DNA of 26,395 nt, taken from UHGV virus genome UHGV-0085321. One strand, written 5' to 3'. The DNA comes from a virus. This document shows positions 12,601-15,600 of this stretch, piece after piece (position 1 is the stretch's first letter; each line of letters starts with the position of its first letter). Made by a program: the position numbers.

Positions 12601-15600
12601 AGGGTATAAGCCATTATCAAAGCCCACCCGTAGATAGGCTTTGTAATGGCTACTTCGCTTTTGCTTCCGCTCGCTTACGCCGGCGCTCTTCTTTCCTCTC
12701 GGCTTTTGCCATGTCCATGAATGCCTGCATGATCGAGTTCCGCATCATGTAGCTAACAAAGTGATGATTGACACAGCCGTTGAGGCGCAGCTGCTCGCCA
12801 AACTCATCCACCGAGGCCAATGCTTCCATCATGCCCTTCTCGCCTTTCATGAACTCTGAGAAGTCGCGCCCCGCTCTGGAGGCGCATTCAATAACACGAT
12901 CACTCATCCCGGAAGCCCGGGGATCGTAATCTGCAGCTGGTTAGCCAGGGAGTTAATCTCAGCGACCAACACTGGCTTCGTATAGCGCCATGCTGCCAGC
13001 CCTTGTCCGCAGAAGCTCGCCATGTCTTTCTTCTGGTCAAACTCATGACATTTCATGTTGAGCTGCGCACTTAAGCTGTTGCGATGCTGAAGTTCTCCGG
13101 TGAAGTAGTCATCGAGGACTTTATAGGCCGCGTACTTGAACCCGGGGTTTAACCAAGCCGCATAATCGTAAGCAACAAACTTCCCGCCATATGTTCCACC
13201 GTGTACACCGCGCTCAGTAAAAACCACAGATTCGTGGTTTTTCTCCAGCTCGGCTAAGAACTCTTTGGTCTGCTTGTTTCGCAGGTAGTGGTAAGGCGAT
13301 TCAGATTCACTTTTACCACTGGCTTTCCACATATCAGTGAGGCAGATCATGCCATCTTCACCGATACGAATTGGTTGATTGAAGAGGGTTAATGATTTCA
13401 TAGCGTGTACCTACTCTTTGAAATGAACCTTTGCCGCACAGGAAACCAGCCCACCGAGGCTCGCCAGCACTAACTGGTATCCTCAAAGGCCCATTCCAAA
13501 GGGGCAGGTTCGGTGTAAAAAACATGCGTTGCGGTACGCATTTATTGCAAAAAGCCCCGCATCGCGAGGCTCATTAAATGGACTTTGTGATTTGCAAAAA
13601 AATTAATTCAGACATTGCGTCCTGATGTATTCCTGCAGGTAGTTAACCTGCGCGGTTATCTTGTCGATTCCACTTCGGAGACGGTAATAATTGAGTTCAG
13701 CATCTGCTGTAAGTCCTGGGCTTTCTCCATCGCCCATGCCGCTGGCTCCGGTCGTTGACTTTGCACAGGTGGCGGCGACTTGCAGGCGCTTACGCCCAGC
13801 AGAAACATCAGCACGGAGACTTTCGATAGTCGCGTTAGCATCAGCAAGCTCCTTTGTATATCTGGCATCGAGTTCTGCTACGTCACGTTGACGCTTCTGC
13901 ATGTCAGCGATGATGTACGTGGCTTTATCGCGCTGTTCTTTATAGGTAATGGCGTTATCACGGTAATGATTAACAGCCCATGACAGACAGACGATGATGC
14001 AGATAACCAGAGCATAAATAATCGCGGCGACTCTGCTCACTGATCTATCCCCCAACAGGCTAATGCGCTTTCCTGGTCACGACGAATAACCTGTCCATAG
14101 CAGTTATTTGAACGTATGCGGCAATCGCGCCCACCATCTATTATCCACCAGCGAATCGCCTCGCATGCGCCCTTACGATCACCGGCATTCAGCCGCTTAT
14201 AAAACGTCGACGGGAAACACTTACCGGGGCCAATGTTATAGGGACAGAATGACGCTATACCCGCTTTCTGTGGTTCGGTCAGTGGTACTTTAATATTGCG
14301 CTCCACCCATGCCAGCGCCTTATCACGCTCAATGGCGTTGACCTGGTCGCATTTTTCCTTCGACAGTTTCATACCGGGAAAAACGGGTTTTCCATCCACC
14401 ATCGTGGCACCCCGACAGATGGTCCAGATGCCGGACCCATCGCGGTATGCCGTTGTGTGGTTACCTTCTTTTTCATCCAGAAACTGGTCGAGAATATCAG
14501 GCGCGGGCGCACCGACGGCAATCAGTGCCAGAACGGCAGCCGACAGGCCGTATCTGATTTTTGCGTTCATGGATATTTATCAGGATTTATCGGTTTCTGC
14601 CCACGGACAGGTTTATCTGTTCCGGTCAGTGACTTAATGTTGTGATTCCGGAGGAGTCTTCAGAGAACCAGTAATTATTCCTGGTAGCTTTCCTTTGTAG
14701 GTTATCCACACATTCTGCGCATCTAAAATTACGGGGCGCTTTTCCGGCGACTGCTCATCCCCTTCACATAACCCGGCAGCAACATCCAGGAAGACCTGTC
14801 TGATGCTCCTTCTGGCTGCTGCCTCATAAAACCCCAGCGCGGCACCTTCAACACGGTCCAGCGAGATGTCCAGGTCAAAAATTTCACCGTCAAAGCGTTT
14901 TTTGTCCCGTAACGCTAAAGTTACCGTAACTTTATTCTCAAAATTGCGGATCCCTTTCACAATCAGTTCATAGTTTTGAGTCATTGAATTACTCTCCCCG
15001 TGCAGCCTTACGACGGTCCTCTCTGATTTTGAAATACAGGTTAGTCAGATATGTCAGGAAGCCCAGAACCAGACTCCCCAGTACACCAATCGCAGCCCAC
15101 TGTGACGGACTGACCTGATCAAGCCACTGTAAAAACCAGTAGCCAGCACTGCCTGCGGAGGTGCCGTAGGCAATGCCAGTTGAGATTTTGTCCATTGATT
15201 TCATAGCAACGCCTCCGCCAGTAACGGATTGCGTAGTTCTTATATTGGGAAGGGAAAAAAGAAGGCCGCAGCGTAACTATCACTGATGAATTCAGGATAG
15301 CCAGTGGCTACGGCTCAGTTATGGTGCTGGTTAACGGACTTGAACCGCTACCCATTCGCTTACAAGGCGACTGCTCTACCATTGGAGCTAAACCAGCATG
15401 TTTGGCGGGACAGCGTGGACTCGAACCACGATAAGAAGGTTAACAGCCTTCCGTAATGACCTTTATACGACTGACCCAAATAAAAAAAGCCACCGTTGCA
15501 ACTTAAGAGTCACTAACGGCAGCTTACCTTCTAATTATGGCTAAATAGATAATTGCATGTCAAGGCTTTTAACAGCAACATGCTTAACTTTCTCAACACG

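Follow-up and report, generated by a model that had tools for sequence, protein, structure and literature searches.

A YdfR-family (DUF1327) gene coupled to the class II holin of a virus genome: a candidate accessory late gene with a possible link to RNase E or RNA

Introduction

The best described relative of the gene studied here is YdfR of Escherichia coli K-12 (b1555, PF07041), encoded in the cryptic prophage Qin between the class II holin gene essQ and the lysozyme gene rrrQ, the same position as in our locus. In a 2026 paper, K-12 YdfR was isolated by a bacterial two-hybrid library screen in which the bait was RNase G, the paralogue of RNase E, and was reported to bind RNase E through the catalytic half of the enzyme and to co-purify RNA; residues 1-72 were sufficient for the interaction, and the full-length protein was positive with Rne 1-597 (PMC13232886). 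Rne 1-598 co-eluted with Strep-YdfR in an eluate rich in DNase-resistant nucleic acid, and its authors warn that the retained RNA might be due to a contaminant (PMC13232886). As the co-purification was reported with no nuclease control, RNA could bridge YdfR and Rne (PMC13232886). The link with RNase E comes from this one study, with an overproduced and tagged K-12 protein, and the overproduction changed few transcripts and left growth unaffected (PMC13232886). Almost no RNA-seq reads map to K-12 ydfR under standard growth (PMC13232886). The Keio ydfR mutant is also a published envelope-integrity hit, among many weak hits that include empty wells, and this phenotype may come from polarity on the downstream SAR lysozyme.

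Results

The gene analyzed is an open reading frame at 14634-14984, on the minus strand of the window (the whole stretch of 26,395 nucleotides from virus genome UHGV-0085321), as are all the features described below. It starts with an ATG at 14982-14984 and encodes 116 amino acids plus the stop codon (ORF list). The product is predicted to be a soluble, cytoplasmic protein, with an isoelectric point of 5.8 and a top 19-residue Kyte-Doolittle mean of 0.69, compared with 1.72 for the neighbouring holin, in agreement with the soluble-looking protein of this size described in the first-pass annotation, where the strand had to be corrected. That annotation had presented the gene as unknown, but it belongs, as an ordinary case, to the YdfR family, which is catalogued though functionally unsolved. 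The protein matches the Pfam profile PF07041 (DUF1327) over positions 1-92 of 93, with an E-value of 1.7e-41 and a score of 140.8 bits, for a gathering cut-off of 25 bits, so that the profile search proposed earlier does yield a DUF. It also matches phrog_406 (E=6.5e-67) among the PHROGs, and a 98.7%-identical locus is labelled "YdfR family protein" by PGAP. These two profile matches, together with dN/dS values of 0.24-0.6 against diverged alleles, which indicate purifying selection, argue for a genuine gene and against a reading frame that is open by chance. No NCBIfam model matched the protein, and Pfam, NCBIfam and PHROGs together returned solely DUF1327 or families of unknown function, with no similarity to lysis-regulator families such as LydB-like or RIII-like antiholins. 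Among the PADLOC defence models nothing was found at E-values up to 0.1. The family is thus already known, its function is a matter of inference, and the locus is an ordinary instance of it.

Immediately upstream, at 14989-15204, lies the gene for an S21-type class II holin (pinholin) of 71 amino acids, named "class II holin family protein" by PGAP and matching PF04971 (Phage_holin_2_1) with an E-value of 8.6e-36. The holin begins with MKSMDK, a dual-start motif (M1 and M4), as had been read from the sequence before. Its stop codon TAA (14989-14991) and a gap of four nucleotides, TTCA (14985-14988), make up the segment 14985-14991 that precedes the ydfR start, in such a way that ydfR is read in the +1 frame relative to the holin. 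The Shine-Dalgarno sequence for ydfR, GGGGAGAG (14992-14999), is located in the last holin codons and is predicted to pair with the 3' end of the 16S rRNA at -8.5 kcal/mol. Both the short gap and the holin-embedded Shine-Dalgarno of the first-pass annotation are therefore present, and they imply that the ydfR product should be synthesized along with the holin in the late phase of infection.

On the other side, a spacer of 63 nt (14571-14633) separates ydfR from the endolysin gene R, which is displaced downstream to 14037-14570, so that the reading frame does come between holin and endolysin, as claimed. R encodes a lysozyme of 177 amino acids (PF00959, E=1.1e-23; phrog_7, endolysin), with an N-terminus, MNAKIRYGLSAAVLALIAVGAPAP, that reads as a SAR segment when the translation is judged by eye. 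The R leader behind ydfR is AT-rich, and in three different alleles its duplex energy with the anti-Shine-Dalgarno was at least 0, with no Shine-Dalgarno detected. The Rz spanin reading frame follows at 13603-14055 (PF03245, E=4.9e-35), with Rz1 embedded in it at 13656-13868 (ORF list); in the PGAP annotation of the nearest relative, Rz starts at the equivalent of 14040.

A late promoter-like site, TTGACA-18-CATAAT (11 of 12 matches in the promoter scan), was found at 15534-15563, just after Q, from where it would drive a transcript with holin, ydfR, R and Rz. A crude consensus scan of the coding strand from holin to Rz detected no other promoter-like or terminator-like site, and ydfR is consequently not a classical moron, that is, a gene with its own promoter and terminator that is expressed in the prophage. 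From the earlier proposal of a moron exploiting late expression, the late-expressed passenger is close to the reading that we favour, but the moron is not, as neither signal of its own was found.

The junction between holin and ydfR is strongly conserved. Among the Escherichia-type loci fetched, all 87 have the holin upstream with a gap of exactly 4 nt, and almost every one of these loci carries the junction GGAGAGTAAnnnnATG, with AGAGAGTAA in one of them; the same holin-ydfR offset was found in the nine phage accessions common to both tblastn tables (9/9). Our locus shows this Escherichia-type context in full, with a class II holin, the 4-nt gap and a lysozyme downstream. The resemblance to ydfR of the Qin prophage pointed out beforehand proved to be literal homology, with 80% identity to K-12 YdfR over residues 1-74; Qin also shares the 4 nt between the stop codon of the holin and ydfR, and the junction GGAGAGTAA. 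One and the same ydfR allele (97-98% identity) occurs beside holins of 79-100% identity, which indicates that the arrangement survives recombination. In phage 933W, which has no ydfR, S and R are directly adjacent, and R is preceded by a Shine-Dalgarno and a 4-nt gap identical to those of ydfR; ydfR thus occupies the usual slot of the endolysin gene, and R is left without a Shine-Dalgarno. A programmed +1 frameshift from holin into ydfR was also considered, given the Shine-Dalgarno-like GGGGAG before the stop, as in prfB. It was rejected, as GAG-TAA is implausible as a slip site and the fusions in the databases read ...AARESNSM..., a sequence that we attribute to a simple single-base deletion in the GGGG run.

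Around 80% of complete E. coli genomes (4349 of 5426) have a match to ydfR, in prophages. Among phage records, 101 carry ydfR and 438 an S21-type holin (tblastn), so that about a quarter of the records with this holin type have the gene. The family is tiny, with 88 matches among 1.84 billion representative proteins, evolves fast, includes intragenic mosaics and is confined to prophages. Remote homologues of 72-86 amino acids align over exactly the region of residues 1-74 and are encoded as stand-alone genes within the tail operons of prophages, from Citrobacter, Serratia, Sodalis and metagenomes, after the tape-measure gene, between L-like and K-like genes, or between chaperone and tape-measure genes. 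All 20 members tested with Pfam, stand-alone proteins included, scored as DUF1327.

The structure of the protein was predicted with AlphaFold2 from a 45-sequence alignment. Residues 1-74 (14763-14984), the conserved family core, form a confidently predicted beta-beta-beta-alpha domain, with strands at 5-14, 18-27 and 34-43 followed by a long helix at 50-71, and block-mean pLDDT values of 81-95 across residues 1-70. Y53-E54, at the start of the helix, is invariant in the alignments of both close and remote members, so that the target has the Tyr-Glu pair and the fold that mark the DUF1327 core, and the model agrees with them. Position 51, adjoining this pair, is Gly in the target and Glu in more than 90% of the aligned members. 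Residues 75-112 (14649-14762), EGDEQSPEKRPVILDAQNVWITYKGKLPGIITGSLKTPP, have pLDDT below 50; they are kept in most Escherichia alleles, are missing from K-12 YdfR (alignment A1) and appear behind a different N-terminus in the family member P0152, a pattern that suggests a second, shufflable module. The protein ends in a variable tail, ESQH plus stop (14634-14648), created by a junction after codon 112: directly after ...KTPP, members of the family finish with ESQP, KW, LA or a long extension, and the indel breakpoint among alleles falls exactly at this point.

The fold matches of the DUF1327 domain were generic. Foldseek against BFVD gave nothing below E=0.01, and a profile search of the PDB with the remote-homologue alignment gave one match, ribosomal protein eL18 (E=0.42), discarded as due to chance. 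When 20 diverse members were run against Pfam with E-values up to 10 allowed, DUF1327 and noise alone were returned, with no double-stranded RNA-binding domain (dsRBD), taken here as an alpha-beta-beta-beta-alpha fold plus a sequence-profile match.

Behind the stand-alone DUF1327 genes a convergent reading frame is found in 8 of the 10 loci having downstream sequence, and a type of locus (L004) with around 280 extra nt between ydfR and R carries one there too. The 3' end of ydfR is a slot for diverse convergent cargo genes, and the 63-nt spacer of our locus represents the empty form of this slot after codon 112. The possibility that the convergent reading frames constitute one family was rejected, as they belong to at least six different PHROGs (10490, 25324, 2411, 2572, 1853 and 18578) and are mutually homologous only among Citrobacter, Serratia and locus L091, at 37-41% identity.

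Discussion

For the ydfR product, we consider an accessory role in the late phase, through binding to RNase E or RNA, more likely than a place in the lysis machinery. The reading that we favour as a whole, with a probability of roughly 45%, is that of a holin-coupled accessory late gene of the YdfR family, whose N-terminal domain binds RNase E and/or RNA and which is not part of the lysis core. The gene would be transcribed solely within the Q-dependent late transcript and translated from the strong Shine-Dalgarno in the last pinholin codons; the most probable partner of its N-terminal domain is the host RNase E, in its catalytic N-terminal half, and/or RNA, and this binding would modulate RNA decay in the late phase, leaving ydfR as an accessory gene, outside the core of pinholin and SAR endolysin lysis. 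The activity is transferred by homology from K-12 YdfR, where the 80% identity extends over the sufficient fragment. Against this reading, the N-terminal domain of the target differs from that of K-12 at 15 of 74 residues and has the atypical G51, and a role in lysis would equally predict the strict linkage to the holin in Escherichia.

It is also possible, though we find it unlikely, that the protein is an accessory late product with some other target, in anti-defence, superinfection exclusion or host takeover, the association with RNase E and RNA being an artefact of overproduction. A family that is so small, fast-evolving, mosaic and prophage-confined, whose domain moves among different late-operon sites and whose 3' end receives diverse convergent cargo, would suit such a role. 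The generic fold matches and the PADLOC result do not point to it, the sole experimental data indicate RNase E and RNA, and the lack of a detected promoter of its own, together with the K-12 RNA-seq data, implies that ydfR is not expressed from the lysogen (PMC13232886).

A lysis-timing or regulatory factor was the other role suggested by the first-pass annotation, and nothing in the data leads there. The target of such a cytoplasmic regulator would be the pinholin, at its cytoplasmic tail, or the SAR endolysin before its release, and triggering would be delayed or sharpened, with P1 LydB and T4 RIII as precedents. The constant position of ydfR directly behind the holin in Escherichia, with an invariant coupling junction that implies co-production, and the survival of this arrangement through recombination would fit. 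Nevertheless, around three quarters of the phage records with an S21-type holin have no ydfR, in 933W S is coupled straight to R, and in other genera the genes with this conserved domain belong to tail operons, so that a dedicated role in lysis timing is quite unlikely. The dual start of the holin already supplies its own antiholin, DUF1327 is the only Pfam assignment, with no lysis-regulator family matched, and overproduction of K-12 YdfR was without effect on growth (PMC13232886). An effect in cis, in which the insert takes the holin-embedded Shine-Dalgarno, uncouples translation of R from that of the holin and lowers or retimes R synthesis, the protein mattering little, agrees with the 933W arrangement and with the R leaders of the three alleles but is highly improbable, given the purifying selection on the ydfR coding sequence and the conservation of the domain as a stand-alone gene outside lysis cassettes, as a spacer needs no conserved fold.

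A broader proposal, which we regard as a long shot, is that DUF1327 is a phage RNA-handling adaptor, a dsRBD-like beta-beta-beta-alpha module that contacts RNA as well as RNase E, in its catalytic half, and whose gene marks a cargo slot of late operons. It would control RNase E processing of sense and antisense RNA where late transcription meets the convergent cargo, or protect the long late transcript, and our locus would be an empty slot.

Few genes of unknown function are as common in E. coli prophages, many Stx1a- and Stx2c-converting phages included, as those of the ydfR family, and they sit within the lysis cassette type that has been studied best. If the lead to RNase E holds, temperate coliphages would carry a late-expressed modulator of the main RNA-decay enzyme of their host. 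For the annotation and engineering of these cassettes it is useful that ydfR takes over a ribosome-binding site, embedded in the holin gene, from which the endolysin is otherwise translated, and that the codon after residue 112 is an insertion slot for convergent cargo genes.

Phage modulators of RNase E are represented by phiKZ Dip/gp37, T7 gp0.7 and T4 Srd, and the target would share with them the contact with RNase E, if the K-12 result transfers. P1 LydB and T4 RIII are soluble holin antagonists encoded beside holins; the target is likewise a small soluble protein from a gene adjoining the holin gene, but homology to them was not detected and most S21-type cassettes have no ydfR. The stand-alone DUF1327 proteins of Citrobacter, Serratia and Sodalis tail operons share with the target the beta-beta-beta-alpha domain and the invariant Y-E pair, but they are only 23-37% identical to it, lack the second module and are encoded outside lysis cassettes. 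K-12 YdfR, with its closely similar N-terminal domain, has 103 amino acids and a C-terminus after residue 74 that is unrelated to that of the target, and its gene ends with a stop that overlaps the rrrQ start (ATGA), whereas in the target the 75-112 module and then the 63-nt spacer follow. ORF47 of the Stx phage BP-4795, with equivalents in H-19B, YYZ-2008, Stx2-converting phage 86 and many Stx1a and Stx2c phages, belongs to the same family and has the slot, the 4-nt coupling and the 75-112 module of the target; this type is about 62% identical to it, with a different allele in the first half of the N-terminal domain (KKKYELVVKGINNYPDKITVTVALEIGGYPSLLLP...), and mosaics between the two types exist.

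Identity of the Gene and Organization of the Lysis Cassette

The 116-aa ORF observed behind the pinholin in the first-pass annotation was confirmed and is a real coding gene. It had been labelled there as an unknown gene, but it belongs to a known and widely annotated family, as the profile search assigned its product to Pfam DUF1327 (PF07041; E = 1.7e-41, well over the gathering score) and to phrog_406 (E = 6.5e-67). The nearest genome copy, located inside a lambdoid prophage (L002), is 98.7% identical across 1.7 kb, and its genes are labelled by PGAP as holin, 'YdfR family protein', lysozyme and lysis protein. 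The resemblance to ydfR of the Qin prophage noted previously represents true homology, since K-12 YdfR is 80% identical to the window protein over residues 1-74, being unrelated beyond them, and the gap between essQ and ydfR in Qin is of 4 nt as well. Hydropathy analysis detected no hydrophobic segment in the window protein. The gene is, thus, an ordinary member of a known family of unproven function rather than a novel type of element.

The late region of the window lies on the minus strand, to which all the positions in this paragraph refer. The Q antiterminator gene (15541-16059, PF06530) is followed by a promoter-like site (15563-15534, TTGACA-18-CATAAT, 11 of 12 matches in a promoter scan), and between this region and the holin there are two tRNA genes, tRNA-Asn-GTT (15403-15477) and tRNA-Thr-TGT (15322-15397). 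At the position of these tRNAs, L002 carries an HNH endonuclease gene, and another relative (L003) four tRNAs (Ile, Lys, Thr and Gly). The class II holin (14989-15204, 71 aa, PF04971 with E = 8.6e-36) has a dual start, MKSMDK, and ends in a TAA codon (14989-14991), with the ATG of ydfR (14982-14984) 4 bases past it and its coding sequence reaching 14634. The final holin codons constitute the Shine-Dalgarno, GGGGAGAG (14992-14999), which includes a GGGG run and has a predicted pairing of -8.5 kcal/mol with the 3' end of the 16S rRNA. A spacer of 63 nt (14571-14633) precedes the lysozyme (14037-14570, 177 aa, PF00959), whose N-terminus reads as a SAR segment, and Rz with an embedded Rz1 follows 3' of it. 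The anatomy described earlier, with a Shine-Dalgarno inside the holin, a 4-nt gap and the ORF between holin and lysozyme, was therefore correct. No promoter-like or terminator-like sites were found from holin to Rz in a scan of the coding strand of the window, and YdfR would be made together with the holin, late in infection. Directly past Rz there is a gene for an antirepressor-like protein with KilA-N and ORF11CD3 domains (12904-13401), whereas 933W and BP-4795 have an 'ant' gene between R and Rz instead.

Domain Structure and Distribution of the Family

Four useful additions to that description were obtained: the domain structure, the presence of ydfR in the translation slot of the endolysin, a cargo slot past residue 112, and evidence from remote homologues that the DUF1327 domain is not tied to lysis. 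The weaker HMM matches include proteins of 72-86 aa that align to residues 1-74 only, all of them matching DUF1327 in Pfam and keeping an invariant Tyr53-Glu54 pair, which points to the N-terminal domain as the family core. With an alignment including these homologues, AlphaFold2 modelled this domain as three strands and then a helix of 22 residues (block-mean pLDDT of 81-95 for residues 1-70), with pLDDT below 50 for residues 75-116; the model from an initial, shallower alignment had averaged 62.5. The remote short homologues placed on contigs (23-37% identity to the window protein) are encoded after the tape-measure gene in Citrobacter freundii prophages, between the tail chaperone and tape-measure genes in a Serratia-type contig, and adjoining an L-like tail gene in Sodalis ligni and three metagenomic contigs, and none of them lies in a lysis cassette.

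Two remote members, P0186 (176 aa) and P0189 (170 aa), have two tandem DUF1327 copies each. Codon 51 of the window allele (14832-14834) encodes Gly, where more than 90% of the aligned family members have Glu, two residues before Tyr53-Glu54 at the helix start. The allele also departs from the majority at position 103 (Ile for the usual Arg) and at its C-terminal residue, His116 (usually Pro).

By blastn, the gene was matched at 8617 places in 4349 of 5426 complete E. coli genomes. The family is small: a word-indexed search of 5.8 billion proteins yielded 288 clusters, in such a way that all the matches listed with an organism name were from Escherichia or Shigella except one labelled Enterococcus, and only 88 of 1.84 billion representatives matched in an exhaustive HMM search. 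When one genome was scanned for each of 185,579 species, seven loci were recovered, from E. coli, E. albertii, E. ruysiae and two MAGs; the contigs of both MAGs resemble those of E. coli. Loci L008 (GTDB, titled Veillonella parvula MAG) and L010 (Bacillota MAG) carry ydfR with an E. coli-type holin and lysozyme, and the family protein P0078 is labelled Enterococcus faecalis. Such Firmicutes-assigned records are most likely mis-binned or contaminating E. coli contigs.

Putative Role of YdfR

The sole experimental data on the family are those of Göpel et al. (RNA Biol 2026, PMC13232886). K-12 YdfR was recovered there in a bacterial two-hybrid library screen with RNase G, the RNase E paralogue, as bait, the isolated fragment spanning residues 1-72. 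Full-length YdfR gave a positive signal with Rne 1-597, and Strep-YdfR co-eluted FLAG-tagged Rne 1-598 together with much DNase-resistant nucleic acid. The study reports no nuclease control for YdfR, and its authors warn of contaminants. Its overproduction altered few transcripts and did not slow growth, and native ydfR is silent in standard growth (PMC13232886). Since the interacting fragment coincides with the conserved N-domain, where the window protein is 80% identical, we infer that the latter, produced along with the holin, may bind RNase E through its catalytic half, RNA, or both, which is the most likely of the mechanisms considered. Fold searches added little: the small phage inhibitors AcrIF24 and T7 gp1.2 came out at similar scores, and BFVD gave no match below E = 0.01. 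Neither a PDB profile search nor a Pfam scan of family members linked the protein to dsRBDs at the sequence level.

YdfR could instead be an accessory protein that acts on something else, for instance in anti-defence or takeover. This is an unlikely though still sizeable possibility, against whose anti-defence version stands the lack of a PADLOC match.

A lysis timing or regulatory factor, or a moron, had been proposed at first. A dedicated lysis role, as a cytoplasmic regulator of holin or endolysin, is disfavoured and we consider it improbable. When co-occurrence was checked by tblastn, S21-type holins were found in 438 phage records and YdfR in only 101, mostly Stx1a- and Stx2c-converting phages, so that most holin records have no ydfR. 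In addition, the remote stand-alone domains sit in tail operons, outside lysis cassettes, the window protein matches no lysis-regulator family in Pfam, NCBIfam or PHROGs, and in 933W holin and endolysin work as direct neighbours. The weak envelope-integrity signal published for the Keio ydfR mutant might arise from polarity on the SAR lysozyme gene downstream. Less probable still is an action mainly in cis, on the translation of the endolysin, because the coding sequence is under purifying selection (dN/dS of 0.24-0.6 against diverged alleles) and stand-alone homologues exist.

A Putative Cargo Slot at the 3' Junction

In the fetched Escherichia-type loci the distance from ydfR to the lysozyme gene is -4, 28, 53, 55, 63, 321, 343 or 452 nt. 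When the window was aligned with the E. ruysiae type, the flanks were identical and around 280 nt were inserted in the latter exactly past the codons for ...LKTPP (residue 112), holding a 90-aa ORF of phrog_2411 in convergent orientation. In other alleles this position is taken by convergent ORFs of phrog_2572 or phrog_1853, and YdfR is sometimes extended there by a long C-terminal segment. Insertion at residue 112 accounts for the varied C-termini of the family, in which ESQP, KW, LA or a long tail comes immediately behind TPP, and the window has the empty form of this slot.

A small convergent ORF very often comes directly past the DUF1327 gene, in some E. coli lysis cassettes as well as in the tail operons of other genera. 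These ORFs represent six or more PHROGs of unknown function (10490, 25324, 18578, 2411, 2572 and 1853). Among the fetched loci, such pairs occupy L093 5001-5553, L097 5001-5519, L091 93-616, L092 446-992, L103 4695-5515, L104 3788-4413, L106 5001-5821, L108 5001-5553, L003 3598-4180, L005 4001-4766 and L085 4001-5131. The 3' end of the DUF1327 gene looks like a recurrent cargo slot.

The 5' Junction and Comparison with Phage 933W

The junction with the holin was analyzed in 87 loci of the Escherichia type, drawn from IMG/VR and GTDB genomes. All 87 have the holin upstream at a gap of exactly 4 nt, with a nearly invariant junction, GGAGAGTAAnnnnATG, and this gap is constant among holins 79-100% identical to that of the window and ydfR genes 95-98% identical. 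The nine phage accessions common to the holin and YdfR tblastn tables show the same offset. Inheritance of the junction is enough to explain such strict linkage within Escherichia, a functional tie being possible rather than needed.

The ydfR frame is +1 relative to the holin. Holin-YdfR fusions (PF04971 plus PF07041) were found in several database proteins (P0017, P0031, P0032, P0108, P0117, P0227 and P0249), most of them reading ...AARESNSMTQ..., as expected if the GGGG run loses one G; they may be homopolymer sequencing errors, decayed prophages or real variants.

Behind ydfR, the R gene of the window, BP-4795 and K-12 is preceded by an AT-rich leader, ...GATAAATCCTGATAAATATCC-ATG, in which duplex energies detected no Shine-Dalgarno. 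An AT-rich motif, ATAAATATC, lies right before the endolysin ATG in the leaders of the window (14571-14633), L102 and L001. In phage 933W, which has no ydfR, S is directly followed by R, with the junction GGGGAGAGTAA-GCTG-ATG. Its endolysin begins with MSRKL..., in contrast to MNAKI... in those behind ydfR, and this different N-terminus, along with the holin-embedded Shine-Dalgarno, places the mosaic boundary inside the 5' end of R. As R of 933W shares both the Shine-Dalgarno and the 4-nt gap with ydfR of the window, the slot behind the holin is normally that of the endolysin, and ydfR occupies it.
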